A program made the position numbers and the translations under genes. From a virus (lineage: Duplodnaviria > Caudoviricetes): 51,452 nt of DNA. Under the pieces are notes generated by a model. That model saw only the letters and a program-made list of their open reading frames with translations. It had not been told where the DNA came from and did not search any database. Location of the stretch: IMG/VR virus record IMGVR_UViG_3300045241_000033, positions 1 to 51,452 of that record; one strand, 5' to 3'. Below, one piece after another: positions 12,678-51,452 of the stretch (position 1 is its first letter; every line of letters starts with the position of its first letter).

Positions 12678-13313
12678 TCATACGACTTCATCCACGAGGC
12701 CGTGGTGCAAGGCCTCCCCGGCGTTCAGGTACCAGTCCCGGTGCTTGGTGTACTCGTCCAGCTCGCGCTCCGTTAGGTTGGAGCGGGAGGCCAGGATGCG
12801 GATCGTCTGCTTACTCCAGGCCATGGTTACCTCGGCCTCCAGCATGGCGTTGTCGGCCCCCATCCATGGCAGGGACTGGCCAGACTTGTGGATCATCAGG
12901 TGCGCCTCGCGGTCGATCCTGCGGGTCTTGGCGGCCTGGAGAATGACCGTGGCCATGGAGGCCGCCCAGCCGCGAACGTGGATGGTGAGCTTCGGGATAT
13001 CGGCCAGGAAGGCGTACAGGTGCAGTCCTGCCGTGTTGAGGCCCCCGTCCGAGTTGAGGTAGAGCGTGATCGGCTTGCGCGGTGCGTACCGGCGGAACTC
13101 GCTGATCTCCAGCATCAGCTCCTTGACCGAGGCGTTGTCCACGTCGGACGTGAAGTAGAAGACGCCGTTCCACCAGTCGCTCGACTCGGAGAGTCGCTCC
13201 TCGCGGGTGGCGTCCTCGGCCAGCACATGCGAGACGATCAGGTCGGCCTCCAGGCGTGCGATCTCCAGCTCCATCTTCCGCCGCTTCAGGGCTTTCAGGT
13301 CAGGGCCGGTCAT
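12678..13313 (-). CDS. clpP: ClpP-like serine protease
   Basis: LYLNSDGG, AASMA (catalytic Ser), LMIH (His), RDWYLNAGEAL..GLVDEV (Asp). Confidence 0.9.
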   Translation of the reverse strand: MTGPDLKALKRRKMELEIARLEADLIVSHVLAEDATREERLSESSDWWNGVFYFTSDVDNASVKELMLEISEFRRYAPRKPITLYLNSDGGLNTAGLHLYAFLADIPKLTIHVRGWAASMATVILQAAKTRRIDREAHLMIHKSGQSLPWMGADNAMLEAEVTMAWSKQTIRILASRSNLTERELDEYTKHRDWYLNAGEALHHGLVDEVV

Positions 13314-14859: not shown

Positions 14860-15147
14860 CTAGTCCTCCTCGCTGATGATGTGCGTCAAGACTACGCCGC
14901 ACTTGTCCCGCACGATGCGGGTCAGTAGGGACGGAGGTCCGAACACGGCCTGCGAGCAGATGACCAGCTCGCGCGGCGCGTCGGACAGCTCCGCGATGCG
15001 TTGCGCCCGGAACAGCGCGAACGTGTGCGAACCGCGCACGTCCAGCTCGGTGCCGGTCGAATCGAGCACGCGGTAAGCGACCTTGCCCACCGCGCGCTCG
15101 GACTTCACGGTGCGCCCAAGTCGGGCGCGCTGCTTCGCCTTAGCCAT
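14860..15147 (-). CDS. Hypothetical protein
   Basis: 95 aa ORF in the early operon. Confidence 0.6.
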   Translation of the reverse strand: MAKAKQRARLGRTVKSERAVGKVAYRVLDSTGTELDVRGSHTFALFRAQRIAELSDAPRELVICSQAVFGPPSLLTRIVRDKCGVVLTHIISEED

Positions 15148-15216
15148 AATGCTGCACCGCTACGAGCGTCCAGATGACGATGAACAGCACTAGCTGCAGC
15201 GTCAGAAGGACGCCCC

Positions 15217-15456
15217 TCACGAGGTCGCACCGTCGAGGCACGCGAGCCACTCGAACGTCGAGGTCGTGTGCTCACGGCACGCCGCGTACACGCGCTCACG
15301 CTCAGCCCTGTCGAGCCGCATGAGGTCGTCCTCGATCAGCGCGAGCCAGTCCCTGTCCTCGCGTTCCAGCCGCTTACGGTGCTGCTGGTCAGCACGAAGC
15401 ACGCGCTTGAACGCGTCGCGGTTGGCGATGGTCTGCTTGCCGTCGGTCTGGATCAT
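15217..15456 (-). CDS. Hypothetical protein
   Basis: 79 aa, ATGA coupling, RBS AAGGAG. Confidence 0.6.
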   Translation of the reverse strand: MIQTDGKQTIANRDAFKRVLRADQQHRKRLEREDRDWLALIEDDLMRLDRAERERVYAACREHTTSTFEWLACLDGATS

Positions 15457-15595
15457 GACGCGATCTCCTTGACGAGCACCTCTTTGATGTGGATGTCAGG
15501 GAGCGCCTCGTCCCAACGATGCGGGGCAGGGACGCCCAACGCTTCCCACCACTCGCGGTCGTCGTCCGTCGTCACTTCAAGGATGACGAGCGTGG

Positions 15596-16042
15596 TCATA
15601 CGGGTGTCTCCTCTCTGGCGGGGGTGTCATTCACGTCGAGCCCCGGAAGGAACTCGCGCTTTCGTCTTAGCTCGTTATGCCTGTGCCGGTGCTCAGACGC
15701 AGACATCAGCTCTAGGTTCTCGATGCGATTGTCGAGCCGGTCACAGTTCTTGTGGTGAACGTGCTCGTCTGTGCGGAGGGGGCGCTTGAGATGCCGCGCC
15801 ATCACCGCACGGTGCTCCAAGATGTACCGGCGGGTGACCGCCATCTCGGGGAACGGCTCTGCCGAGGCGAGCACAAACGCGTATCCTTGCGTTGCGCTGA
15901 TGTAGCGTCCGCCGCGCCAGTTCTTCCGATTGTGTCCTGCGATGAAGCGCACGGGCCGACCTTTCTTCCAGCCAGCCCGTTTGTCGGTCTTAGTGGCGAT
16001 GGGTGCGGGTAGACCGCACCCGCACTCACAACACTTCGACAC
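15596..16042 (-). CDS. HNH endonuclease
   Basis: CECGCG N-terminus, LEHRAVM, EHVHHKNCDRLDNRIENL. Confidence 0.88.
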   Translation of the reverse strand: MSKCCECGCGLPAPIATKTDKRAGWKKGRPVRFIAGHNRKNWRGGRYISATQGYAFVLASAEPFPEMAVTRRYILEHRAVMARHLKRPLRTDEHVHHKNCDRLDNRIENLELMSASEHRHRHNELRRKREFLPGLDVNDTPAREETPV

Positions 16043-17069
16043 GATCCTTCTCCGTCGTCGTGTCGGTCAGACCCGGCAGGTACTCCCGCCGGATCCACTG
16101 GAACGCCTGCGTGCCCTCACCGAACGCAACGGTGATGCCGCCGGTCGCACCGGCCCGTACGTCACCCGCGACGAAGACGCCCGGAATGGACGACTCCTGT
16201 GGGTACGGCGAACGCTCCAGGTACGTGATGCCGTCGTCGCCCGTGTGGTAAAGCGGCCAGTCCTCACGCGGCACGTCGTAGCCTGTGAGGATGTAGCCCT
16301 CGGCGGTCTTGGCCCCGCTGAACCAGCCGGTAGCCGGTACGCCGCCGATGAACACGTAGGTGTGGTCGGGTCGCAGTCCGACCTTGCCCTCGTGCACCGC
16401 GATGGACACGCGGGACAGAGTCTCGTCGCCGTGCGCCGTCGTGATCTCGCCCTGCACCACGGTGATCCACGGCGTCTGATGGCGGGAGCCACGTTCGGCC
16501 GCGAGTCGTTGCCGCAGGTACATGCTTGTGGTCTCGGCGAGCGGGGAACGCGTCAGGATCGTCACTCGACGTGCGCCCTTGTCGGCCAGTGCGAGCGCCA
16601 GCTGCGCGCAGGAGTTTCCTCCTCCGACCAGCATGACGTGCTGACCCGCGTGCTCGTGCAGCGTCGTGGCATCGCACGCGTACTCGACGCCCCGCCCCTC
16701 GTACGGTCGGAGCGCGTCGAGCTTCGGGGTTGTCTCGCCCACAGCGATGATGACGCTGCGTGCGTACAGGTTCCGATCGGCTGTGGCCACCCACAGCTTG
16801 TCACCCATTCGCATGAGCGCGGTGACACGCTGGTCTGTCCACAACTCGGCCCCGAACTTACGAGCCTGCGCCGCGAGACCATCGAACAGCGCAGGCCCAC
16901 TGATGCCCTCGGGGAATCCGGGCACGTTCTCGATGAGCGGGGACTGATACGCCCTACCGCCGAGCGTGCCGGATGCTTCCAGCACGACGACGGACAGGCC
17001 CTCAGATCCCGCCTTGACTGCAGCGGTCAGGCCCGCAGGCCCGCCGCCGATTATGGCGAGGTCGTACAC
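16026..17069 (-). CDS. Thioredoxin reductase-like FAD/NAD(P)H oxidoreductase
   Basis: IIGGGPAG, IENVPGFPEGISG, VGGGNS, PGVFVAGDVR; CxxC is absent (YACDAT). Confidence 0.88.
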   Translation of the reverse strand: MYDLAIIGGGPAGLTAAVKAGSEGLSVVVLEASGTLGGRAYQSPLIENVPGFPEGISGPALFDGLAAQARKFGAELWTDQRVTALMRMGDKLWVATADRNLYARSVIIAVGETTPKLDALRPYEGRGVEYACDATTLHEHAGQHVMLVGGGNSCAQLALALADKGARRVTILTRSPLAETTSMYLRQRLAAERGSRHQTPWITVVQGEITTAHGDETLSRVSIAVHEGKVGLRPDHTYVFIGGVPATGWFSGAKTAEGYILTGYDVPREDWPLYHTGDDGITYLERSPYPQESSIPGVFVAGDVRAGATGGITVAFGEGTQAFQWIRREYLPGLTDTTTEKDRVEVL

Positions 17070-17071
17070 GG

Positions 17072-17260
17072 TCAGTCCTCGCTCGCGGTTTCCGTGACGA
17101 ATGAGTCGATACCGTCAGGCTCGAAGAGCCACTGGATACTCGTCTCGAAGTTGTTCGCCTTGAGGGTCTTAGCGCCGCCCTCGGCGGCTTCCAGGGACGC
17201 GAAGGGCCCGACTACGTCAGGCCACTCGCTGTCCTGCCACTGTGCAAGCACGACGTACAT
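17072..17260 (-). CDS. Hypothetical protein
   Basis: Motif plus AAAGGAAGGA RBS; MYVVLAQW...VGPFAS.EAA. Confidence 0.7.
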   Translation of the reverse strand: MYVVLAQWQDSEWPDVVGPFASLEAAEGGAKTLKANNFETSIQWLFEPDGIDSFVTETASED

Positions 17261-17637
17261 GTGTCCTTCCTTTCTGGCGGGGATATGGGTGTAGCAGGTT
17301 CTCCCGCGCCCTACCCGCCGCATGGAGTAGGGCACGGCAGAACCCGCCAGGATTTCTGCCGGTTGCGCGCCGGAGCGCGCTACGTCTTGATACCGCCGCG
17401 CCTTGCGATCTCGGCCCAAATCGTCCGCTGGCGCGGACACCATAGGATCGCTCGGTCGTCGGTGAACTTCACGAGCTGTAGCAGCTCGCCGGTCGTGTAC
17501 GCGTCTAGCTCGGCGCGCGTCATGACTCGCACTCCACGAAGTCCCAAAACTCAGGCATGTCGGGCGTGATGCGCGGTGGCCCGTCGTAATCGCCGCCGCC
17601 CGGACGTGTGTCCACGTCCTCGGGAAGCTCTACCCAA

Positions 17638-18060
17638 CTAGCCACGGTCGATCACTTCCAGCGCGGATATGTCGCAGAGCGCCGCGTCGATATCGTCGGG
17701 CGTGAACCCAACCGCGAGCAGGTCGTCGCGAAGGTACTCGTCCTCATCCCCCGCGATCTCACGGGGGTAGTCGTCGCCCGAGTCGGACTCGACGCCCCAG
17801 ATTCCGGGCGTGCTTAGGTGGAATACCTCGTCCACGCGGCCGGGCCGCGTAAGTGTGATCTCGGCCGCGAGCCTGATACCGCGCATGTGCCAGTCGCCGC
17901 GCTCGTATGCGTCCAGCCGCTCGGCGTCCTGCGCGCGGTACTTCGCGGCTTCCTCCGGCGGGATGCTCGGCTCGTTGTAGTCCTGGGTCAACCAAGACAA
18001 GTCGGGCGACTCGTCACAGATAGACTCGATGAACACGCGAAGGGATCGCGTCGTAGGCAT
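17638..18060 (-). CDS. Hypothetical early protein
   Basis: 140 aa acidic; motif plus RBS. Confidence 0.75.
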   Translation of the reverse strand: MPTTRSLRVFIESICDESPDLSWLTQDYNEPSIPPEEAAKYRAQDAERLDAYERGDWHMRGIRLAAEITLTRPGRVDEVFHLSTPGIWGVESDSGDDYPREIAGDEDEYLRDDLLAVGFTPDDIDAALCDISALEVIDRG

Positions 18061-18185
18061 GGTGTTCCTTTCTGGCGGGGTTTACCGGCGCTTCGCCGGT
18101 CTGTGATCGTGACACGTTGTCGAGCCAAGGCGGGAGAGTGCAGGGCAGATTTTTGCCCCGCACTCGATGCAACCTTTGGGCGCTT

Positions 18186-18521
18186 TCATTGACCGATGAC
18201 GGCCGCCGACGGCTGGTCGTCCACCGGCCGCTTGCCTTCGGCTTTGAGAATGGCGTCACGCAGTGCGCGCGACGGCTTGAAGATGAGCGACCCGTTAGGG
18301 CCCTGCTCAACCTCACCGAGAAGCTCTCGACCGTAGCCTGCGCTGCCGCGCGTGGCGTGAATACGTACGCTGTCGCTATCGTCTTCGCGCCAGTTGGCGA
18401 CCATCTGAACCTCTGCGCCAACGTGCCAGCCGCGAATGTGCCCGTGTATCCCGGAGCCTATATCGCCCATGCGGGAAGTACCGCCACGGTTGCCCTGAAT
18501 CTCTGCGTAGAAACGTGCCAT
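18186..18521 (-). CDS. Hypothetical early protein
   Basis: MARFYAEIQGNRG...GWHVG; motif plus RBS. Confidence 0.75.
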   Translation of the reverse strand: MARFYAEIQGNRGGTSRMGDIGSGIHGHIRGWHVGAEVQMVANWREDDSDSVRIHATRGSAGYGRELLGEVEQGPNGSLIFKPSRALRDAILKAEGKRPVDDQPSAAVIGQ

Positions 18522-18619
18522 GGTGTGTGTGTGTCCTTTCTGGCGGGGTAGAGCGTTAGGAGCCGCTCCGGGATGCTCCGGTCTGAGCCGGAGTCACCCG
18601 CAACGCTCACCGCGCTTCG

Positions 18620-18724
18620 TTAGAGGATTGCCGCAGCGCGCAGGATTAGCTGGGCGATATCAGCGGCTAGCGCGAACGCCACGCAAGCGACCGCGAGCAG
18701 GAATAGTCCGAAGGTGCCGGTCAT
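18620..18724 (-). CDS. Small hydrophobic peptide, 34 aa (not in ORF track)
   Basis: Motif plus AAAGGA; MTGTFGLFLLAVACVAFALAADIAQLILRAAAIL. Confidence 0.55.
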   Translation of the reverse strand: MTGTFGLFLLAVACVAFALAADIAQLILRAAAIL

Positions 18725-18831
18725 GGTGTGTCCTTTCTGGCGGGGAACAGGTGGAGCGGCCTACTTGGACTTAGGCGTCCCTTTCAACCGCTCCGCGCCG
18801 CTCCGGTCAGGCCGGAGTCGGGCGCAACGGT

Positions 18832-19014
18832 CTAGCTACCTGCGAGCAGGACGCACAGGACGCGCGTCCGGTCGATGTCCTCGGCTACTTGCCAAACCTC
18901 GTAGCCTTCGCTCGGCCCAGCGTTCGCCTCGATGTAGTCGAGGGCGTCGTCATAGCTGCGATGCAGAGGGCTGCGCTCGTCGCGCGGATCAGCGGTGAAA
19001 ACGACTTCGTACAT
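18832..19014 (-). CDS. Hypothetical early protein
   Basis: 60 aa; motif plus GGAGG. Confidence 0.65.
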   Translation of the reverse strand: MYEVVFTADPRDERSPLHRSYDDALDYIEANAGPSEGYEVWQVAEDIDRTRVLCVLLAGS

Positions 19015-19354
19015 GGTGCCTCCATTCTGGCGGGTGAAGTGACCTTAGAGCGGCCGGGGTTTCGTACGGGGGAGGATCGCTCCAGGCAGCGCAGGCATAG
19101 CGCAACAGAGCGTTACCTATGGCGTACCCTCGGCAGGATCCGTATCCCTCGGGAACGTCCCTAGCCGCTCTAATCTCACTTCGTCGTATCTCGGGCATCG
19201 TCCCCTAGTTTCCTCTTGCCGCACGCTTCTCTCGTGCCGGGCTATGAGTCGGCCGGACTACTTAGTTTCCCTCATCCCGTCCGCTTCGCTCCTGCTGTAC
19301 CGACCTACCATCTCTGGCGGACTCGGCCTCGGCCTCTGCATTCGGTATGGCCTC

Positions 19355-19382
19355 AATCTAGCAGCTGTACAGCCGCCGTCAA
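19355..19382 (-). promoter_or_regulatory. Putative housekeeping-sigma early promoter
   Basis: TTGACG-N16-TAGATT facing the early genes; palindrome GCTGTACAGC in the spacer. Confidence 0.5.
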
Positions 19383-20337
19383 GGGGTCTGGACAGTTCCG
19401 TACAGACTCTTTACATCTGCCTGTCTAGGCCTGTATCCATGCGGGCCAGGTCTGGCCGGATGCTGGACAGTCCGGTGCATGCTGGACGTTCTGCAAGTGG
19501 ACACGTAGCAGGCTATCGTCCGCCACGGCCTCGATGCGGGGGCTGGTCATGCGTTCGTACAGCGGGGCTTGACCGTGGGATGACAGGCAATCACGACCGT
19601 GTCCGTGCCCAACCTCTCGACGTCCTACTACACCAGTGGCAACGATGACCCACTACCGCAGTAGTGCACGGCTGACCCCGTGGCTAGCCGTTGTGAGACC
19701 GTGGCAGGCATCGACGGCTGGGGCTCGGCGTACCATGAAACGGCCGATCCTGGCCCCCCTTACCTCCCGCGCGCGTACTTTGGAATGCCCGTGTACGGAT
19801 TCAGGAGCCCTGCACGGAATCGATCGATCGATCCCCCGGATCCCTGCATCCATACGGAAAATGCGGTGCGGTGCGCTCTATACAGTGGACCAATAGTTCC
19901 TCCTCCTCCCTTTCGGTCGGAGGATTGGGAAGAAGAGGTCTTTGGAAAACCATGGTAAGAGCTATATAGGTATATAGGGGCCCACCCAGCCTCCCCGAGG
20001 ACTCCCTGCTGTTGCCTTCCCCAGCATCGCCGAGGGAGGCCGCACGTCGCTCAATCGGTCGAAAACGGGGGCTCTACGTGGGGCGCGACGAGCGCGGTGA
20101 CCGTTCCCCGACGGCTTGAACAAGCGACGATGTCGGAGCCCCGGCCGCCCGCCAGGGCACGGCCGGTACCAGATAGGCTCCTGGGCATCCTCCCGGTGGG
20201 GGAGAGGCTCATCTTCCCTGGAAGAGGATCCGCAGAAGCTCTTTCACCGGGAGGGTTGTAGAAACCACCCTGATTCTCGTTTAAAGGGTGCCAGGGCATC
20301 TTTTCGGCGGACGGTGGAGATCGCCCTGGCACTCTTT

Positions 20338-20386
20338 GACCGTGGCTGGATAGGAAGCACGGGGGTTCGATCCCCCTACACGGTCA
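20338..20386 (+). ncRNA. tRNA-like mini RNA 1 (no anticodon arm)
   Basis: GACCGTG/CACGGTC acceptor-like stem plus A; GCT-GGATAGGA-AGC D-like arm; GGGGG-TTCGAT-CCCCC T-like arm. Confidence 0.6.
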
Positions 20387-20399
20387 CAGTCCGCAAGCA

Positions 20400-20464
20400 G
20401 ACCTCGCTAGGTAGACCGGGGCACTTCGGTGTCACGGGCAAGGGTTCGAGTCCCGCTGAGGTCA
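20400..20464 (+). ncRNA. tRNA-like mini RNA 2 (UUCG-capped arm in place of the anticodon)
   Basis: GACCTCG/TGAGGTC stem plus A; AGGTA D-like loop; GGCAC-TTCG-GTGTC; GGG-TTCGAGT-CCC. Confidence 0.6.
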
Positions 20465-20466
20465 TA

Positions 20467-20805
20467 GGGATAGGTCAGTCGGATGTCGTGCGCGCTTGCC
20501 CACGGCTCGGCTGAAGGGTCTACGACGCATATGCGTTGCGCTTCAACGCAGGTGGCTCGGGTGCAGTCCTTGCATCCGCTGTCGGAGGTGAAGGGGATCC
20601 GTGGTCTTTTTGGGGCTGCGGTGATCTGGAGCTGATGGCGGTGGGTGGGCGGTGCCCGTGGTCGAACTGAAACGGAGTGCGCGCGGCGTAACGGGGCTCG
20701 ATGTGTCGCAGGGCGTCTTGGAGCTGCAACTCCTCGGTACCGAGCGGCCGTGATCTTAGTCGGGTCGGTTCGTGCTTGTGAGCCGATCGATTACTGACCT
20801 GTCCC
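20467..20805 (+). ncRNA. Candidate ~340 nt structured ncRNA
   Basis: 13 bp closing helix GGGATAGGTCAGT/ACTGACCTGTCCC, several internal hairpins with G-U pairs, no credible ORF. Confidence 0.55.
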
Positions 20806-20898
20806 TTCCCTTTGCCCCTCGACCGAATCGGATTAGAACACGGGCCGGTCGAGGGGCATTTCTTTGTAAACACACCTAGGCGAGGAGAGAAACTCACT

Positions 20899-21582
20899 AT
20901 GGATGATCGCATTTGGCTTCCGGACGGTACGACCGTCCTGCCTAACGTGCTCGACGACGAGTTCGAGAAGTCGAACGTCGCGAACGTGCCGTGGAGCCTC
21001 ACGCTCGCAAACGCCGCTACGCTGGCCCTGACCTCCGCCGCCGCCGAGTTCATCACAGGCGGCCAGGCGATGAAGTTCACGTCCGGCACCGCGGCCAGCT
21101 CTGAGATCCACAAGTACCTCCCGATCCCGCAGCGGGCTATGGGCCCGCGCGGCGGTGGAGAGGTCGGCGTGGAGTGGATCTTCTCCGTCATGGACGAGAA
21201 CCCCTCGAACCTCGCCTTCTACGTGTCCTACCGCGATCAGGCGAACTGGATCCGAGCAAAGCTGCTCCATGTCTTCACCACGAACGTCTGGAGCTACCAG
21301 GACTCGGCCGGAGTGCAGCAGGCGCTGATGACGCGTGACACGTCCGAGAACACGGCTGTCCCACGGTGGCACCGTGTCGTCATGAGTATCGACGTCATCA
21401 AGAACACCTGGAAGCAGCTGACGATTGACGAGATGGACTTCTCGTCTGTGGTCAGTCTCCTACCGCTCCGCAACACCGCAGATGCCACGGCCCCGTCCTT
21501 GCTCGACTTCGCCGTCGAGTTCACGAACACGGCCACGCCCGGCGTGCTCAACATCGACAGCGTCCGTAGCTGGTACCGCTAA
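20899..21582 (+). CDS. Hypothetical beta-rich protein, possibly virion-associated
   Basis: RBS GAGGAG before ATG 20899; first gene of the late arm. Confidence 0.7.
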   Translation: MDDRIWLPDGTTVLPNVLDDEFEKSNVANVPWSLTLANAATLALTSAAAEFITGGQAMKFTSGTAASSEIHKYLPIPQRAMGPRGGGEVGVEWIFSVMDENPSNLAFYVSYRDQANWIRAKLLHVFTTNVWSYQDSAGVQQALMTRDTSENTAVPRWHRVVMSIDVIKNTWKQLTIDEMDFSSVVSLLPLRNTADATAPSLLDFAVEFTNTATPGVLNIDSVRSWYR

Positions 21583-22017
21583 ATGGCTCGTAAAGCCGTC
21601 GGCGTCAAGACGTCAAGCGACCCAGCCGCGGGAGCCGAGCTGACCTACGTGGCCGACGAGGACATGGTCGTCATGTCGGCGCGCATCACGTTCGTGACTT
21701 CCGGAGTGGTGGCCAACAGGTTCCCGGCCTTCGTCGCTGACGACGGTAACGCGGCCAACGAGTTCTTCCGTGTGGCGGACGCAACGGGTCGCGCAGCCAG
21801 CACCACCACCCAGTACGCGCTGTTCGCGGGCGCACCGACCTCCGGACTCAGCGCCGGGTTCGGCCTCCCCGCCATGGGGCTGAAGCTCCGCAAGGGAGAT
21901 CGCCTCCGAACCATCACGTCAGCCCTTGACGTCGGCGATAACTACTCCGCGATGGTGCTCCAGGTCGAGCGCATGCCGGAAGCGTTTCGTCAGAGCCAGG
22001 ACTTCCTGGACGCATAA
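21583..22017 (+). CDS. Hypothetical protein, possibly virion-associated
   Basis: 144 aa, abuts the upstream stop. Confidence 0.7.
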   Translation: MARKAVGVKTSSDPAAGAELTYVADEDMVVMSARITFVTSGVVANRFPAFVADDGNAANEFFRVADATGRAASTTTQYALFAGAPTSGLSAGFGLPAMGLKLRKGDRLRTITSALDVGDNYSAMVLQVERMPEAFRQSQDFLDA

Positions 22018-22050
22018 CCCCCAACCGTCCGCCAACTTTTAGGAGACAGC

Positions 22051-22194
22051 ATGACCTTCGCTGCAAACTGCAAGGACTGTACCAACGCCGGGATCCGCAA
22101 GGTCAAGGCGCTCGCCTTCTGGACGTGCGACGTCTGCGGTGAGAAGACCGACAAGTACGCCTGCCCGAACATCTGCGGCACGAGGCGACCTTGA
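22051..22194 (+). CDS. Small Cys-rich Zn-finger protein, 47 aa (not in ORF track)
   Basis: AGGAG RBS; CKDC...CDVC...CPNIC. Confidence 0.6.
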   Translation: MTFAANCKDCTNAGIRKVKALAFWTCDVCGEKTDKYACPNICGTRRP

Positions 22195-22391
22195 GCAACG
22201 GGGGCGGCTTCAAGTGGGCGTTCGGTATCGACGGTGAAGGCACGAAGTGGGAGCGGTTCAAGCGCTCGCTCGGGCCTATGTCGGAGGAGCAGACCGAGGC
22301 ATGGAAGCCGATCTCCTACGCCATGAAGTTCGTCGGCGGACTCTACATCGCCGGATTCATCATCGCCGTAATCTACACGCACGTCGGTTAG
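22191..22391 (+). CDS. Small membrane protein
   Basis: C-terminal hydrophobic helix; TTGA coupling. Confidence 0.6.
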   Translation: MSNGGGFKWAFGIDGEGTKWERFKRSLGPMSEEQTEAWKPISYAMKFVGGLYIAGFIIAVIYTHVG

Positions 22392-22394
22392 ACG

Positions 22395-23933
22395 GTGGAC
22401 TACCGCTCGCTGACCGCGGGCGGGACACATCGAGCAGAAGACCTGACCCGCGAGCTGCTTCCGGGCATGCTCGAAGCCCACGCGGTCAAGTACCTCTGGT
22501 TCCTGCAGAAGGGTTATCGCCCGCACATCTGGCAGATGCTCTTCCACTCCGCACGTAACGGGGGTGGCCTCGCGCGTTTCCGCCACCTCGTGGCCGGACG
22601 ACGCGGAGGCAAGACTCTGAGCGCAGCGTGGGAGGCACTCTTCTATGCGCTCCACCCGCGCGAGTTCCATCGAGACCGTCACGGTGTCGAGTCGGATCGC
22701 CCGCTGTGGATCTGGGGCCTGGCGAAAGATCATAAGCTCGGAGGCCCGAGCCTCGTCACGTTCATGGACGTGATCCGGCAGGCCGGGCTCGTCAAGAACA
22801 CCGACTACACGTACAACAAGACGGAGAAGGTCTTCGAGTTCTTCGGCCCCGGCGAACAACTGCTCGCGCGCGTCGAGTTCAAGACCGCCGTCGATCCGCA
22901 GTCACTGCGCGGTGCAGGCCTCGACATCCTCTGGATTGACGAGTCCGCCTTCATCACGACGCAGGAGGCGTGGAACGTCGTCTTCCCGGCGCTCGCCGAC
23001 AAGGAAGGCATGGTCATCACGACCACGACGCCGAACGGCAAGAACTGGTTCCACAAGCTCTTCTGGAGCGACCGTGCGCGACTCGACCTGAATCAGTTCC
23101 GCGTCGAGTACACGAGCATCGACAACCCCTACTTCAAGCGATCGGAGTGGGACTATGCCCTTGAGCACTACCACCCGTGGATGTTCCGGCAAGAGTTCAT
23201 GGCGTCCTTCGATGCGATGGCAGGTATCGCCCTCCCCGGAGACTGGCTCAAGTTCTGGGTGCGGGGAAACCCCGACATCCAGACGGACGACATTGGTCTG
23301 CCGATGGACGACAGCGGACAGCGGTACGACCTGCGGCTCTTCATCGGGGTAGATCCGGCGATCAGCCTCGCGGACACCGCCGACCACTTCGCCATGGCGC
23401 TCATCGGGATCACCCGACAGGGCGACCAGGCGTTCCTGATCGATTACTTCGTTGACAGGATCCAGTTCCCGGATCAGCTCGACAAGGTTCGCGAGTGGTT
23501 CCTGAAGTGGCGGCCGGAGAACATCGGCATCGAGTCGAACGCGTATCAGCGCGCGCTCATGCAGATGACGGCGCGCATGCAGGGTCTTCCACCCGTAACG
23601 GCAGTGATGTCGAAGGGGAAGAAGGAAGACCGCATCCTCGGGCTGGGGCCGCTCTTCAAGATCGGCACCGTCCGGATCAACAAGGAGCACCGCGAGTTCA
23701 TCGACCAGTGGGTGTCGTACGACCCCGAGAAGAAGAACGGGGACGACGACCTCCTGGACGCCGTTGAGATCGCGCTCGGCTCCGCGGGAGTTCTGCTCCC
23801 GATGATGCCGCACGTAGACCTCTTCCCCGGTGATGCCGAAGGCGGCTCGCTGGAGGAGCAGGCCTGGTTGCAGATCCAGAACAGCAAGGACAAGAACCGA
23901 TCCTACGATCCCGAGACGGGCTCGGAGGGCTAA
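22395..23933 (+). CDS. terL: Terminase large subunit
   Basis: AGRRGGKT Walker A, LRGAGLDILWIDES Walker B, TTPNGKNW, nuclease GVDPA...DDLLDA. Confidence 0.95.
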   Translation: MDYRSLTAGGTHRAEDLTRELLPGMLEAHAVKYLWFLQKGYRPHIWQMLFHSARNGGGLARFRHLVAGRRGGKTLSAAWEALFYALHPREFHRDRHGVESDRPLWIWGLAKDHKLGGPSLVTFMDVIRQAGLVKNTDYTYNKTEKVFEFFGPGEQLLARVEFKTAVDPQSLRGAGLDILWIDESAFITTQEAWNVVFPALADKEGMVITTTTPNGKNWFHKLFWSDRARLDLNQFRVEYTSIDNPYFKRSEWDYALEHYHPWMFRQEFMASFDAMAGIALPGDWLKFWVRGNPDIQTDDIGLPMDDSGQRYDLRLFIGVDPAISLADTADHFAMALIGITRQGDQAFLIDYFVDRIQFPDQLDKVREWFLKWRPENIGIESNAYQRALMQMTARMQGLPPVTAVMSKGKKEDRILGLGPLFKIGTVRINKEHREFIDQWVSYDPEKKNGDDDLLDAVEIALGSAGVLLPMMPHVDLFPGDAEGGSLEEQAWLQIQNSKDKNRSYDPETGSEG

Positions 23934-23951
23934 GCACACGAGAGGAAGGGC

Positions 23952-24413
23952 ATGGCCATCAACTCGCACATCCAAGACCATCTCGACAAGCGTTCGGGTG
24001 GCCTTACGTACGTCGCCTCCGGCGAGGTGGCGCATATCACCTCCGTATCCGTTTCCGCGCAGCGCATCGCTGAACTGGAGCGGGTAGCCGACGTAACGGG
24101 ACACGAACTACAACTCGTCGGGCAGGTTCTCACGCTCGTACCTAAGGGCTCGGTTCAGGTCGGGCAGTTCACCGTCACCATCGCCTCACCGGGCGTATTC
24201 ACGCTGACCGCGCACGGCCTGTCCGTGGGGAGCGCCATCAAGCTCACCACGACCAGCGCGCTCCCGACCGGCCTCTCGGCCGGAGTCGTGTACTACGTCA
24301 TCGCAGCGGGCTTCGGAGCTAACAGCTTCCAGGTGTCGCTCACTCCCGGAGGCGCGGCCGTTAACACGTCGGTCTCGCAGTCCGGCACGCACACGGCCTG
24401 GAAAGCGGTCTAA
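23952..24413 (+). CDS. Virion-associated protein with SPxVFT..AHGL..G beta module
   Basis: C-terminal ~75 aa module also present in 32093-34549. Confidence 0.7.
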   Translation: MAINSHIQDHLDKRSGGLTYVASGEVAHITSVSVSAQRIAELERVADVTGHELQLVGQVLTLVPKGSVQVGQFTVTIASPGVFTLTAHGLSVGSAIKLTTTSALPTGLSAGVVYYVIAAGFGANSFQVSLTPGGAAVNTSVSQSGTHTAWKAV

Positions 24414-24751
24414 TGTTTGGCCTCGTCCGCACGAGTACCGTTGAGCGTCTCCTTCGGGAGACGCTCGCAGAGCGCGAGCGCATGGTGCAGGTCCTGATCG
24501 AGCAGATCGAGTACCTGCGCGCACAGGTAGGCATGGCGACGACAACCGTCGGCATGGCCGCAGACCTGCAGCCGCGTTACACGCCCTACGCCGTAGGCAC
24601 TGACACTCCCGAGATGGAGTTGGGCAACTTCCTCAGCGATGAGGAGGAGCAGATCGAAGCCATGCGCCAGTCGGGAATGATCTCCGAGTTCGAGTTCCAA
24701 GCGGCCAAGGAAAAACTCAAGGCCGCGCCCGAGCGCGACATCATCGAGTAG
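24413..24751 (+). CDS. Hypothetical coiled-coil protein
   Basis: 112 aa immediately upstream of the portal. Confidence 0.7.
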   Translation: MFGLVRTSTVERLLRETLAERERMVQVLIEQIEYLRAQVGMATTTVGMAADLQPRYTPYAVGTDTPEMELGNFLSDEEEQIEAMRQSGMISEFEFQAAKEKLKAAPERDIIE

Positions 24752-24766
24752 CGAAGGAGGTGACAG

Positions 24767-27307
24767 TTGGCTGACACCCCGAATCCCCAGTACCGCGGCG
24801 TACGCGACCTGCGAGAGGCAAAAGACCTCGCAGAGAAGCGGCGCGAGCTGGATAACCTCCGGCATCGCGACAAGATCGACTGGGTCTTGAACCGCGAGTT
24901 CTATAAGGGGAACCAGTATTCGTACTGGAACAAAGCGTACGGCAGCGGCGGCCGACTGGAGACCGAGGCGACCGACGAGGGCGACAAGCCCCACTACAAG
25001 GTGCGCCTCACGAACAACCAGATCCTTCCGGGCGTCAACCACTACGTCGCCCAGCTCACGAAGAACCGCCCGATCATCGCGGCAACGCCGGACTCAGGCA
25101 GCGACAGCGATCTGAAGTCCGCCCAGATGGGTACTGCCCTCTGGGACTACTGGTGGGGCACCATGTACCTGACGAGCAAGCTGCAGAGCGCGCTCAACAA
25201 CGCTGCGCTCTCGCAGGGGTACTGGTTCATCCAGTGGGACGCGCTCGCCGGGAAGTCCATGACGTACATGGTCGGCCCCGACGGTCAAGCGCTCGTCGGC
25301 CCGATGTGGTCGGACGACAACCTCGACATCTACCGCGACTCGCTGCGCGAAGCCGCGCAGCAGCAAGGCCACGATCCCGACGAAGTCGTCAAGCAGTTCA
25401 CGAAGACGGTTTCGGTCGGAGACATCTCCATCAAGGTGCTACCCGGTGAGAACGTACTGCTCGACCCGGCCGCTCCGACGTTCGAGGACGCGAAGTACGC
25501 GTTCGTCATCGAGAACATGTCGCCGGAGGAGGCTGCCGCACGGTGGCCGAAGGCGAAGGATATCGGGCCGGATGCGATCCCCGGCGATGAGTCCCTGAAT
25601 CTCTCAGGCCTCTCGCAGGAGAACGACCGCTCGAAGTCCGTTCGGCGCGTCTTCCACGGCTTCTTCGCGAAGAGCCCCGTGCTCCCGAAGGGCCGGTACG
25701 TCTGCTGGGTCGAGGGGCCGGACATCATCCTCTCGGACACAGCGTGGCCGTTCCCGTTTGACGAGCTTCCCATCGTGAAGTTCCCCGGTTTGGAGAGGCC
25801 GAACAGTCCGCTTGACATCCCTGTGACGACCGCGACGCGGCCGATCCAGAAGGACATCAACCGGACGATCTCCCAGGTCATGGAGCACAAGAACCTTACG
25901 ATGCGGCCGCAGCTGCTTGCCCCGACGGGCAGCATCTCGGAGCGCATCACGAGTGAGCCTGGCCGCACGTTCTACTTCAACCCGATCAACGGGGCAGTCC
26001 CCGAATGGCGCAAGATCCCGGATCTGCCGGGCTACGTCTTCGAGCATCTGCAGGAGCAGGAGCGGCGGCTCGACCGCTACTTCAACCGGATGCCGAACCA
26101 GCGTGACCAGCTCCCGGCCCGCATCGACAACGCGGACGGGATCGACATCATTCAGGAGTCGGTAGCCGACCAGCTCAGTCCCACCGTGCAGCGCCTCGAA
26201 AGCGCGCTCGTGCGCGCGGGGATGATAATGGCCAAGCTGGCGCAGCAGTATTACGTCGAGGAGCGCCTGCTCAAGATCAAGGGCTCCAACGGCGCGGTGC
26301 AGGTCAAGAAGTTCCGCAACGCTGACCTCGCGGGCGGCTTCTCGTTCCAGGCAGAGGCGGGCTCCGGCCTACCACGCACGCGGGCGGGCAAGCAGTCACG
26401 CATCGGCTTCATGCTGGAGAACCGCTTGATCGACCAGCGCACGGCGATGCGGTACATGGACACCGCCGACCTGACGGGCCTCACGGCCAAGGCTCAGGCC
26501 GCGGAGGAGCAAGCGTACCGCACCATCGAGAAGCTCAAGAAGGGCACGCCCCTCAATCCTCTCGCGCTCGAACAGGCGAAGGCGCAGGCGATGCAGGCGA
26601 TGCAGGATCCGAACGCAGACCTCAATGGCGACGGACAGCCTGAAGACCTGCAGACGAAGATGGGACTGATCCAGCAGATGCTGGAGCAGGCGTCACTTCA
26701 GCCGATGCCGCACGAGGATCCGGGCGTCCACCTCGACGTCCTGACGCAGTTCATGGACTCCGTCGAGTTCGAGAACCTCGACCCCGCTACTCAGAACCGA
26801 TTCAGCCAGCGCTTCACGGCGATGATGCAGATGAACATGCAGATCGCTCAGGCGTCTGCTCAGATGGGTGCGCCCGTCGAGCGGCCGAAGGTCACGCTCC
26901 AGATGAAGGCCACGTCAAGTGCGCCGGTCGCTGGGGAGATCCTTCGCGAGGCTGGGGTTCAGGTCTCTGACGAAGCGGTGGCACAGCCGCCGCTGGAGAC
27001 GTGGGTCACTGACAGCATCGACAAGGCGGACGCGGATGACGCGGGCAACGACCCGTTCACCGACGCCGAGAAGATGCAGACCCTGGTTCATAACCAGGAG
27101 CAGCATGCGAAGACGATGTCGAAGGCGGCCCACGAGGTCTCCCTCGCAGAGTCGAAGACGCACGGGGCTCAGCAAGACGCCTCCGGTCACGCCGACGCGC
27201 GTGCCGAGGCCGAGCACCAGCAGCGCATGAGGCACGCCGAGGAGATGCACCAGGCCAAGCTGGCCGCGGCGAAGCGTCCCCCGGCGAAGCCGAGCGGAGG
27301 CAAGTAA
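24767..27307 (+). CDS. Portal protein (large, podovirus type)
   Basis: 846 aa after terL; FYKGNQY, NQILP, RPIQKDIN; Gln/Met-rich C-terminal extension. Confidence 0.85.
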   Translation: MADTPNPQYRGVRDLREAKDLAEKRRELDNLRHRDKIDWVLNREFYKGNQYSYWNKAYGSGGRLETEATDEGDKPHYKVRLTNNQILPGVNHYVAQLTKNRPIIAATPDSGSDSDLKSAQMGTALWDYWWGTMYLTSKLQSALNNAALSQGYWFIQWDALAGKSMTYMVGPDGQALVGPMWSDDNLDIYRDSLREAAQQQGHDPDEVVKQFTKTVSVGDISIKVLPGENVLLDPAAPTFEDAKYAFVIENMSPEEAAARWPKAKDIGPDAIPGDESLNLSGLSQENDRSKSVRRVFHGFFAKSPVLPKGRYVCWVEGPDIILSDTAWPFPFDELPIVKFPGLERPNSPLDIPVTTATRPIQKDINRTISQVMEHKNLTMRPQLLAPTGSISERITSEPGRTFYFNPINGAVPEWRKIPDLPGYVFEHLQEQERRLDRYFNRMPNQRDQLPARIDNADGIDIIQESVADQLSPTVQRLESALVRAGMIMAKLAQQYYVEERLLKIKGSNGAVQVKKFRNADLAGGFSFQAEAGSGLPRTRAGKQSRIGFMLENRLIDQRTAMRYMDTADLTGLTAKAQAAEEQAYRTIEKLKKGTPLNPLALEQAKAQAMQAMQDPNADLNGDGQPEDLQTKMGLIQQMLEQASLQPMPHEDPGVHLDVLTQFMDSVEFENLDPATQNRFSQRFTAMMQMNMQIAQASAQMGAPVERPKVTLQMKATSSAPVAGEILREAGVQVSDEAVAQPPLETWVTDSIDKADADDAGNDPFTDAEKMQTLVHNQEQHAKTMSKAAHEVSLAESKTHGAQQDASGHADARAEAEHQQRMRHAEEMHQAKLAAAKRPPAKPSGGK

Positions 27308-45194: not shown

Positions 45195-45267
45195 AGCCGG
45201 AGAGCGGACTCGAACCGCTGACCCCGCCCTTACGAGGGGCGTGCTCTACCAACTGAGCTACTCCGGC
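45195..45267 (-). tRNA. tRNA-Thr(CGT)
   Basis: Complete cloverleaf GCCGGAG...CGCCC-CT-CGT-AA-GGGCG...AGCGG-TTCGAGT-CCGCT-CTCCGGC-T; CCA not encoded. Confidence 0.95.
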
Positions 45268-49721: not shown

Positions 49722-50102
49722 CTAGTACGGGATGTCGTCGTCGTCTTCGACCGGAGTCGAAGTGCGGCGGCTGCTGCCCTCGTCGTCCCGGACGCCTTCG
49801 TCCATCGAGCCGAGCACGAAGATCGAGCTGACGGAGAGGTTGTTGTACGTGACCGGCTCGCCTGCCTTGTTCGTGCCGTCGTTGCGGTCGAACTTGCCCT
49901 TCAGCACGACGATGTCGTTCTTCGCGACCTTGACGTGCTCGTGCGAGTCCCAGAGCGTTGCGCTCACCTTGATAGCGCTGCGGCCGAATCCGGCCTGGCT
50001 CACGACGATGTTGCGGATGTCCTGCCCGGACTTGGTCGTGTTCTCGTTGGGCTCGAACTCCACGACGCCGACGACGGTGCGGTACGTTGCTTCAGATGCC
50101 AA
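49722..50102 (-). CDS. ssb: Single-stranded DNA-binding protein
   Basis: OB-fold-like pattern with acidic tail EDDDDIPY. Confidence 0.85.
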   Translation of the reverse strand: MASEATYRTVVGVVEFEPNENTTKSGQDIRNIVVSQAGFGRSAIKVSATLWDSHEHVKVAKNDIVVLKGKFDRNDGTNKAGEPVTYNNLSVSSIFVLGSMDEGVRDDEGSSRRTSTPVEDDDDIPY

Positions 50103-50114
50103 GTGTTTTCTCCT

Positions 50115-50504
50115 CTAAGTGGATTGGTAGGCGGGGTCGTACGCTTTTCGGTACGCCCGCACGAAGTGGCCCCACGACATGCGAATCTCCGTTTCCTCCC
50201 ACCTCGGGGGAATAACGGCGTCGATCATGGCGTAGTAGTCGCGCGTGAACATCTGGACGCAGTCGCGTCCTCCGCGCTTCGCTTCCTTGATTGCGAGCAC
50301 GGGGGGAAGCCCGGCCTTCGCTGCGTTCTCGACGGCCTGCTCCCAGTACGAGGTCAGGAAGGTGTACTTCTTGACGTACTTGATCTCCAGACCGACGCGG
50401 AGGCCTACGCAGTCGGGCGTGTCCGTGCCGGTCGGGCCGGAGCGTTCCCCGCCCAGCACGCGGCACTTCTCCCTCTCAACCCTCTTCCAGGGTTTATCCG
50501 CCAT
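50115..50504 (-). CDS. PD-(D/E)xK nuclease, Holliday junction resolvase-like (allele B)
   Basis: Nearly the same N-terminus as 320-718, different C-terminal segment. Confidence 0.6.
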   Translation of the reverse strand: MADKPWKRVEREKCRVLGGERSGPTGTDTPDCVGLRVGLEIKYVKKYTFLTSYWEQAVENAAKAGLPPVLAIKEAKRGGRDCVQMFTRDYYAMIDAVIPPRWEETEIRMSWGHFVRAYRKAYDPAYQST

Positions 50505-50647
50505 AGCGACCGCGCCGCTCGAACTCACGCGCATACTTCTCGTCGTCCTTCAGACCGTCCACCTCGCGCGCAAGCAGCTCGAAGAACGTAAGAACTCTCC
50601 GCTGACGAAGCCAGAGCCAGCGCCAATCACGTTTAGTGTGGGAGACG

Positions 50648-51085
50648 CTAGCCAAGTAGCTCGGCCAGCCCTTCGTCGGTAACACCGAGCGGCTGGATCA
50701 GGTACTCACGTCGTGTGTACGAGTAGCCGATGATCTCGAACAGCTGGTGGCCGACACGGACAACGTCGGGGAAGCTGAGCTTGTGCCGTACATCGCTCCG
50801 CACAACGTCGCGCGAGTCGATGAAGTAGAAGTCCTCCCGAACCTTGACGCTCGTGTCCTTGAGGTCGATGACGCTCTCGGGCAACTCGTCCACCGCGGCG
50901 GACGACTGCTCCTCCAGGAACATCGTCACCTTCTCGGGCCAGTCTTCATCGACCGAGCCGGTGGGGATCCAGAAGGTACGCATGTCGCAGACGAGGCACC
51001 TCTCGAACTGCTTGTTGTGCGGGTAGTTGACGTTGTGAATCGAGCAGCGGCGTGCCCCGTCTCCGGGATCGCTTCGGTCGAACAT
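50648..51085 (-). CDS. Hypothetical Zn-ribbon protein (second copy)
   Basis: Identical to 862-1299. Confidence 0.7.
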   Translation of the reverse strand: MFDRSDPGDGARRCSIHNVNYPHNKQFERCLVCDMRTFWIPTGSVDEDWPEKVTMFLEEQSSAAVDELPESVIDLKDTSVKVREDFYFIDSRDVVRSDVRHKLSFPDVVRVGHQLFEIIGYSYTRREYLIQPLGVTDEGLAELLG

Positions 51086-51452
51086 CAGTAGGGTGGCTCC
51101 TCCTCTTCGACTCGCTCCACCCGCGCCCAGCCGTCGTTCTCGATGTCGCCCACGATCTCCGCTTGGAGAGTGGACATGAGACGACGAGGCTTCGAGGGGA
51201 AGATGTTTAGCTTGCCGGTCTTGACGCCGCCCTTACCTTCGGCGGCGACCACTGAGATGACTTGGTCTGCGGAGTTGCGAATGGCAGACGCGCCGCGGGG
51301 GCCGCTGCCTTGTTTGTCGGTGTGGTGGACGAGCAGTACGGCTGCGCCGGTATCGCGTGCGATGGGGATGACGCCGCCCCGCATGAGTCTCGTCATGTCG
51401 GGGTTCGAGTTCTCCTCTGCGCCGAGCGTGACGCGACTCAGTGAGTCGATCA
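51085..51452 (-). CDS. Primase-helicase C-terminus (partial second copy)
   Basis: Identical to 1299-1666. Confidence 0.85.
   Translation of the reverse strand, partial: IDSLSRVTLGAEENSNPDMTRLMRGGVIPIARDTGAAVLLVHHTDKQGSGPRGASAIRNSADQVISVVAAEGKGGVKTGKLNIFPSKPRRLMSTLQAEIVGDIENDGWARVERVEEEEPPY

Follow-up and report, generated by a model that had tools for sequence, protein, structure and literature searches.

What is the structured stretch of about 340 nucleotides (nt) that stands directly behind two tRNA-like elements in the phage genome IMGVR_UViG_3300045241_000033? The window analysed here is the complete virus record of 51,452 nt, and the element in question occupies positions 20467-20805 of its plus strand, inside a divergent gap of 1.9 kb (19015-20898) that separates the minus-strand genes from the plus-strand (late) genes. 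The original prediction, made from the letters alone, had regarded it as a possibly undescribed large noncoding RNA whose 5' end is produced by tRNA-like processing. Our results point in the same direction: the domain is noncoding, its structure is specific to the plus strand and covaries among relatives, and its position next to a tRNA or a tRNA-like element is conserved. The domain is best read as an undescribed RNA, belonging to an uncatalogued family whose members measure about 260-345 nt and occur in a clade of uncultivated ~50-kb phages, and with a probability of roughly 0.6 we take it to be a stable free phage RNA that is processed from the leader of the late operon by tRNA-processing enzymes.

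The two ends of the domain are joined by a perfect helix. GGGATAGGTCAGT (20467-20479) is fully complementary to ACTGACCTGTCCC (20793-20805), so that the predicted closing helix of 13 base pairs (bp) does enclose 339 nt, and the domain begins, as had been noticed, 2 nt (TA) past the unpaired A at the end of the second tRNA-like element (mimic 2), behind its acceptor helix. An anchored helix of at least 13 bp at the first base arose in 3 of 1000 shuffles. The minimum free energy (MFE) of the plus strand is -165.2 kcal/mol, against -145.9 +/- 5.1 kcal/mol in 100 dinucleotide shuffles (z score -3.76, 0/100 as good), whereas the minus strand of the domain reaches a z score of only -1.28, with 12 of the 100 shuffles as good; the folding thus beats shuffled sequence, and the difference between the strands bears out the remark that the G-U pairs work on the plus strand alone. 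A conserved open reading frame across the region had been named as an argument against an RNA, and none appeared: the GC content of third codon positions (GC3) gives no coding signal in any frame throughout 19015-20898, and every plus frame of the domain holds three or four stops. A near-identical strain (L002) shows 5 differences in 769 nt, two of them within the domain, one unpaired and the other turning a G-C into a G-U pair in the core-constrained fold.

Homologues were then compared for covariation, with alignments made by L-INS-i and consensus structures by RNAalifold. Two relatives, L235 and L226, can be aligned with the window in two parts of the domain, its first ~65 nt and its last ~130 nt (alignment A5). 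Their consensus has 118 pairs, many of the conserved ones being G-U, with 88.5% of the cells paired (80.4 +/- 1.3 in shuffles, 0/500) and 29 pairs changed on both sides (13.1 +/- 2.7 in shuffles, 0/500); sliding the partners by 1-3 columns left 36-44% paired, a control that is inflated because the structure was derived from the very sequences tested. The closing helix and a series of helices nested within it covary between the window and these two homologues. The overall shape is that of a stem consisting of P1, a weaker P2 and P3, which leads into a three-way junction where a variable rod and a side hairpin branch off (Table 1). P3 is the best-supported helix (5 of its 12 pairs doubly changed and 97.2% of the cells paired in the three sequences) and was also found separately by the helix search, and the helix of the side hairpin Ha (helix 12) has 4 of 9 pairs doubly changed, its loop recurring as C(C/T)GCAA in L235, L226, L006 and L209. 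P4 is without covariation support since it is nearly invariant in the three alignable sequences. Enforcing P1, P3 and P4 together costs the window 1.0 kcal/mol (-164.2 vs -165.2), and the same three helices are already in, or at, the MFE folds of L235 and L226.

The four inner hairpins of the original prediction fared unevenly. All of them, TGCGTTG/CAACGCA, CCGTGGTCTT/GGGGCTGCGG, CGGGTGCA/TGCATCCG and GGTCGGTTC/GAGCCGATC, are complementary as quoted, but the fold common to the relatives retains, besides the closing helix, just CCGTGGTCTT/GGGGCTGCGG; there, long-range pairings take the place of the other three hairpins.

The relatives were obtained by several routes. The gene for a 227-aa product that opens the late block led to one near-identical contig among viral contigs, to none in metagenome or genome collections, and to 10 protein relatives; closer relatives of the terminase protein, at 66-89% identity, come from JGI, Logan, ENA and NCBI, and an alignment of terminase relatives gave loci at 48-61% identity in viral and metagenome collections, among all of which blastn and nhmmer found no match to 19015-20898 or to single domains. 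Of 24 such loci scanned for tRNAs, L087 and L089 carry arrays (20 and 18 tRNAs, at 165-2175 and 57-2538), L006 carries one tRNA-Gln, and 21 have none; both arrays occupy the site corresponding to the gap of the window, in phages whose terminases are 55-58% identical to that of the window. The 2-kb array of L087 ends in a domain, a 301-nt stretch starting 2 nt after the last tRNA, with a closing helix of 19 bp followed by TTTTTTGTTTTG (z score -6.34). L006 has a 314-nt stretch 2 nt after its tRNA-Gln, closed by 10 bp, with z scores of -4.65 on the plus and -1.25 on the minus strand. In L089, a structured stretch of 372 nt (2539-2910, z score -3.74) with a U-run end follows the last tRNA; it is a candidate member of the family and may contain a small open reading frame.

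The window and L006 share a single significant identity (E 0.002), a 15-mer located in a hairpin loop of the leader, upstream of the tRNA or mimics, and this short sequence opened the way to further members. A scan of viral contigs with the 15-mer returned 71 stretches, nine loci having it in the same hairpin context (L006, L174, L175, L178, L196, L209, L226, L227 and L235), as does a further copy of the near-identical strain recovered by the same scan. Seven of the nine carry a terminase relative downstream (53-68% identity), and none was found in the fetched stretches of L175 and L209. A 16-mer scan of genome contigs gave at least 120 stretches, with L360 in context among the matches listed, and the pattern CACGGCTNNNNNGAAGGGTC gave 29 stretches in viral contigs, of which those in context were three already known.

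What emerges is a recurring unit. Boxes 18 nt apart are followed by the invariant-loop hairpin, then by a tRNA or a minihelix, then by a closed domain of 256-344 nt, a pyrimidine-rich tail, usually a terminator, a ribosome-binding site and the first late gene. The tRNA is a real one in several loci, namely Gln (L006, L226, L209), Asn (L196, L087), Trp (L227) or Gly (L360), and is represented by a minihelix of acceptor and T arm in the window, L235, L178 and L175/L382; in L226 a second element, a minihelix as judged by eye, stands directly before the domain. The domain starts 1-4 nt after the tRNA or minihelix in 10 of 11 loci, L209 being the exception, where the domain lies 10 nt before its tRNA. 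Comparative support is thus given to the suggestion that the 5' end arises by tRNA-like processing, the cleavage itself being what this spacing would imply. Likewise, all 10 complete domains are closed from end to end by an uninterrupted P1-type helix of 10-19 bp, which was equalled in 0-42 of 1000 shuffles each. The exchange of real tRNAs for minihelices among relatives suggests, as far as sequence can tell, that processing rather than decoding is what matters.

A second subtype could be aligned independently (alignment A7, with L006, L382, L178, L227 and L209). Its consensus has 78 pairs, 43 of them doubly changed (21.5 +/- 3.2 in shuffles, 0/500), with 83.4% of the cells paired compared with 70.3% in shuffles (0/500), and its nesting is that of the window: P1, P2 and P3 on GGCT and GGGTC, and then the AGGGTC motif. 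L196 and L360 have short-type domains, the alignment of which is misregistered. We propose to recognise the family by fold and position, and the window shows both, with P1 and the P3/P4 junction bearing GAAGGGTC and GGGGCTCGA, 1-4 nt after a mimic and downstream of the invariant-loop hairpin. By position and plan, and short of proof from sequence, the subtypes probably share descent, and the second and third subtypes probably belong to the same family.

Upstream of the domain, the boxes line up across 11 related loci (alignment A6); they were not called by a generic promoter scan, and by their sequence may act as a sigma-70-like promoter. The leader hairpin behind them has a z score of -5.51 (0/200 shuffles as good). 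Its loop is identical in the 11 loci and all seven of its stem pairs are doubly changed, with 90.9% of the cells paired against 59.5 +/- 4.4 in shuffles (0/500). Boxes and hairpin together resemble a control element of late transcription, and they are present in L174 without tRNA and domain. Minihelix 1 is well defined (ensemble frequency 0.94, z score -3.22); its sole Rfam match is a weak one to tRNA-Sec (E 8.7), and ARAGORN does not take it for a tRNA. Neither upstream element is called by ARAGORN or by Rfam at the gathering score, and we treat both as mimics, not as tRNA genes, because only acceptor and T arms are kept.

Downstream, the terminator-like hairpin is a perfect inverted repeat of 13 bp with a z score of -5.14 (0/200 shuffles as good), which a simple terminator scan missed because its loop exceeds 8 nt. 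The first late gene starts 33 nt past the T-tract, and its product has no Pfam or PHROG match.

Is the domain already known under another name? A search of Rfam 15 (4227 models, including GOLLD, ROOL, RNase P, transfer-messenger RNA (tmRNA), 6S, signal recognition particle (SRP) RNA and group I/II introns) gave no match to the domain at the gathering score. At E<=10, the region 19800-21000 produced six chance-level matches, none inside 20467-20793, and at E<=1 no match fell within any domain of eight homologous loci (60,062 nt), where four tRNAs, a tRNA-Sec-like match and a 6C match at E 0.69 were obtained. The failure to recognise RNase P RNA, tmRNA, SRP or 6S by eye is therefore shared by the models, those of GOLLD and ROOL included. 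ARAGORN reported no tRNA or tmRNA at the domain. P1 is 13 bp long and is followed by TTCC rather than CCA, with no T arm before its 3' strand; a 3' end without T arm and CCA argues against tmRNA, whose tag frame was not searched for. No bacterial RNase P RNA model, of type A or B, matched at the thresholds given, and the succession of helices behind the 3' junction strand (side hairpin, P3', P2', P1') departs from the plan of RNase P RNA. In comparison with 6S/Ms1-type RNAs, the domain contains a long imperfect rod and matches no model. A group I intron within a tRNA was considered and rejected, as the tRNAs adjoining the domain are complete. Finally, a full-text literature search, which did not cover paper supplements, found no description of such an RNA, and the claim of novelty is upheld within these searches.

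That a long-known class hides behind extreme divergence, be it RNase P RNA, tmRNA, a 6S/Ms1-like RNA, SRP RNA or a reduced GOLLD or ROOL, is in our view highly improbable. Paired ends and a size of ~300-340 nt do recall RNase P RNA and tmRNA, and GOLLD and ROOL often lie near tRNA islands, according to passages of PMC5737381 and bioRxiv 10.1101/2024.12.08.627333; yet the permissive searches of the window and of the eight homologous loci gave no match to any of these classes, the sequence around the 3' strand of P1 is not that of a tmRNA, and the domain is roughly half as long as ROOL and less than half as long as GOLLD. Hardly more probable is a nonfunctional origin, in which a decayed remnant of a tRNA array, or a site acting as DNA (packaging, origin), merely folds well through its G-rich composition. 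Relatives do have tRNA arrays at this site, the large terminase gene is found 1.6 kb downstream of the region, and the GC skew across 20001-21000 is +0.096. Composition is, however, controlled by shuffles that preserve dinucleotides, and the signal remains strand-specific; many of the conserved pairs are G-U, that is, mismatches in duplex DNA or on the other strand; compensatory changes exceed those in shuffles; and even at E<=10 nothing in the domain resembles a tRNA, as a decayed array should.

More weight has to be given to a leader that acts purely in cis, with the structured stretch and its terminator or terminators gating the structural genes, although we still consider it unlikely; the same holds for its finer form, in which an antiterminator overrides the terminated leader and the invariant-loop hairpin is the site of the regulator. 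The unit is indeed placed between conserved promoter-like boxes and the first late gene, and L174 retains boxes and hairpin with no domain. Terminator-like hairpins stand behind the domain in the window, L235, L226, L006, L227 and L382, and in the window the T-tract is only ~30 nt from the ribosome-binding site, so late transcription must traverse the domain. On the other hand, the spacing of 1-4 nt from a tRNA or minihelix and a helix reaching from the first to the last base fit a processed free RNA better, the domain precedes the tRNA in L209 and ends a 2-kb tRNA array in L087, and minihelices reduced to acceptor and T arm suggest selection for processing. It is mainly the persistence of these minihelices without a tRNA, in the window, L235, L178 and L175, that leads us to prefer the free processed RNA.

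Several observations nevertheless weigh against that preference and against a single family. Covariation within the subtype of the window rests on three sequences, from which the tested structure was itself derived. The rod of the window misaligns with those of L235 and L226, and the consensus projected by columns reaches -88 kcal/mol as against an MFE of -165 kcal/mol; this poor projection is due to the unalignable rod, and we therefore relied on the core helices alone. Between the subtype of the window and the others, single-sequence nhmmer finds no match, and profile cross-matches, correctly placed, are weak (E 0.17-0.26). Mimic 2 by itself folds no better than shuffles (z score -1.02), although relatives have real tRNAs or minihelices at the corresponding position. 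In L174, boxes and hairpin are present without a tRNA or a domain, and at least one relative can thus do without the domain. Lastly, the interval between terminator and gene leaves no room for a separate late promoter.

If the domain is a processed free RNA, the course of events might be as follows. Transcription would begin just before the invariant-loop hairpin; tRNA-processing enzymes of the host would recognise the minihelices, RNase P cleaving 5' of them and RNase Z, or an enzyme equivalent to it, 3' of them, which would leave the 5' end of the domain at ~20465-20467. The 3' end would come to lie either in the tail behind P1 or at the terminator that follows, and P1 would protect the two ends from exonucleases; the resulting stable free RNA could act in trans on a partner, be it protein or RNA. 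The late messenger would come from transcripts that read through the terminator.

A further thought, which we hold only tentatively, is that domain and leader hairpin represent a new class of RNA released by tRNA enzymes and acting as a free particle, coupled with a switch of late transcription at the RNA level. Were this so, the domain would stand as a smaller counterpart beside ROOL and GOLLD, multimer-forming RNAs that are among the most poorly understood of all, with tRNAs, the translation machinery or host defence as possible targets, and it would be accompanied by a 15-nt leader loop that stays unchanged across phages sharing only 50-68% terminase identity. In any case, a trans-acting domain would add a new family to the few large phage RNAs, and a cis-acting one would reveal an unusual, RNA-rich control region of late genes. 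The exchange of tRNA and minihelix offers a direct experimental handle on how such RNAs arise, and at ~340 nt the domain is small enough for probing, structure determination and pull-downs.

Table 1. Coordinates of the RNA domain, its leader and tail, and other features of the window.
Feature	Position	Strand	Details
Closed RNA domain, 339 nt	20467-20805	+	Folding, covariation, end-to-end helix
P1, 5' strand	20467-20479	+	Pairs with 20793-20805, 13 bp; compensatory changes in both groups
P3, 5' strand, CGGCTCGGCTGA	20503-20514	+	Pairs with 20756-20767 (TTAGTCGGGTCG), 12 bp
P4, 5' strand, GGGTCT	20516-20521	+	In conserved GAAGGGTC; pairs with GGGCTC 20694-20699, in conserved GGGGCTCGA
Variable central rod	20522-20693	+	Cap CCGTGGTCTT (20599-20608) / GGGGCTGCGG (20612-20621)
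Side hairpin Ha	20705-20754	+	Apical loop CTGCAA 20724-20729
Promoter-like boxes	20256-20285	+	-35-like TTGTAG 20256-20261, 18-nt spacer, AT-rich -10-like TTTAAA 20280-20285
Leader hairpin	20286-20334	+	Loop with invariant 15-mer TTCGGCGGACGGTGG 20303-20317
tRNA-like minihelix 1	20338-20388	+	7-bp acceptor stem, short arm, T arm (GGGGG/CCCCC, TTCGAT-type loop), no anticodon arm
tRNA-like element 2 (mimic 2)	20400-20464	+	Acceptor stem, UUCG-capped arm, weak T arm, GGTTCGAGTCC loop, terminal unpaired A
Tail TTCCCTT and terminator-like hairpin, then TTTCTTTG	20806-20866	+	Arms 20813-20825 / 20846-20858
First late gene, 227 aa	20899-21582	+	GC3 0.83; preceded by GAGGAGAG
Large terminase subunit	22395-23933	+	With nuclease domain
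P22-type portal	24767-27307	+	Late block
tRNA-Thr	45195-45267	-	Sole real tRNA of the window (ARAGORN; sole Rfam match at gathering score)
24-nt inverted repeat	19036-19059 / 19159-19182		Within noncoding gap
AT-rich TATATAGGTATATAGG	19963-19978		Within noncoding gap
CCCGCCAGAAAGGACACACCATG motif copies	18061-18085, 18529-18553, 18726-18750, 19012-19034	-	Read on the minus strand

The genomic setting is that of a phage remote from the catalogued ones. No DNA similarity to catalogued phages was found for 20100-20900 or 15000-27000, and none of the 127 phage records matched by the terminase reaches 60% identity. The minus-strand block extends to 19014 and encodes a primase-helicase, a family A DNA polymerase, a PD-(D/E)XK nuclease and a ClpP-like protease, and the late block begins at 20899. 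The genes of the ClpP-like protease and of a thioredoxin-reductase-like flavoprotein (12678-13313 and 16026-17069, both on the minus strand) lie in the early block, apart from the head genes. The ends of the record, 1-1666 and 49796-51452, form an imperfect direct repeat of 96.3% identity over 1,673 aligned columns, giving a unique genome of ~49.8 kb; the record is nonetheless classed as being without end repeats. Upstream of the unit, a further 1.2 kb (19015-20255) is without coding signal, and its part 19985-20255 folds with a z score of -2.40 (4 of 200 shuffles equal or better). A motif of about 23-25 nt, CCCGCCAGAAAGGACACACCATG in minus-strand reading, immediately precedes the start codon in each of four small genes on the minus strand, and L006 has a similar one ahead of its last minus-strand gene. 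An archaeal host, which distant terminase matches to haloarchaeal viruses had brought to mind, was rejected; Shine-Dalgarno sequences, sigma-70-like boxes, intrinsic terminators, the family A DNA polymerase and the primase-helicase all argue for a bacterial phage. The 7-kb contig of L360 was binned in a metagenome-assembled genome of Hyphomicrobiales, a weak hint at the host.

How does the unit compare with systems already described? The late operon of phage lambda has a promoter and a short terminated noncoding transcript ahead of the late genes, the expression of which needs read-through; unlike the unit described here, that leader has neither tRNA modules nor a conserved elaborate fold. The tRNA cluster of phage T4 contains small stable RNAs that are not tRNAs and are matured from a shared precursor by tRNA-processing enzymes, a likeness in the route of release, though these RNAs are far shorter and belong to an unrelated phage with unrelated sequence. 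Prohead RNA of phi29 (PMC5066667) is a phage-encoded structured RNA tied to the packaging and structural module; it gives no sequence or model match here, and the large terminase encoded by the present phage is of the ordinary kind, with a nuclease domain. The principle that a tRNA-like module beside a longer RNA recruits RNase P and RNase Z and thereby defines the end of that RNA is described for MALAT1/mascRNA and for the tRNA-linked RNAs of gammaherpesvirus 68 (PMC8457004, PMC4337559). Those are eukaryotic or animal-virus systems, and in MALAT1 the long RNA has the tRNA-like piece on its 3' side, an order seen here in L209 alone.

By context, the nearest relatives are GOLLD and ROOL, structured noncoding RNAs of phages and prophages that are often encoded beside tRNA genes or co-transcribed with them, as set out in sections of PMC5737381 and bioRxiv 10.1101/2024.12.08.627333. 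The domain shares with them the proximity to tRNAs, since in 10 of 11 loci only 1-4 nt separate it from a tRNA or mimic, and yet it is a member of neither: it measures 256-344 nt as against ~580 nt for ROOL and more than 800 nt for GOLLD, their Rfam models match neither the domain nor the homologous loci, and in place of their many multistem junctions and pseudoknots it has one main three-way junction, pseudoknots not having been searched for. Among the tRNA-adjacent phage RNAs, it offers a compact case, and one that comes with a readable transcription unit.

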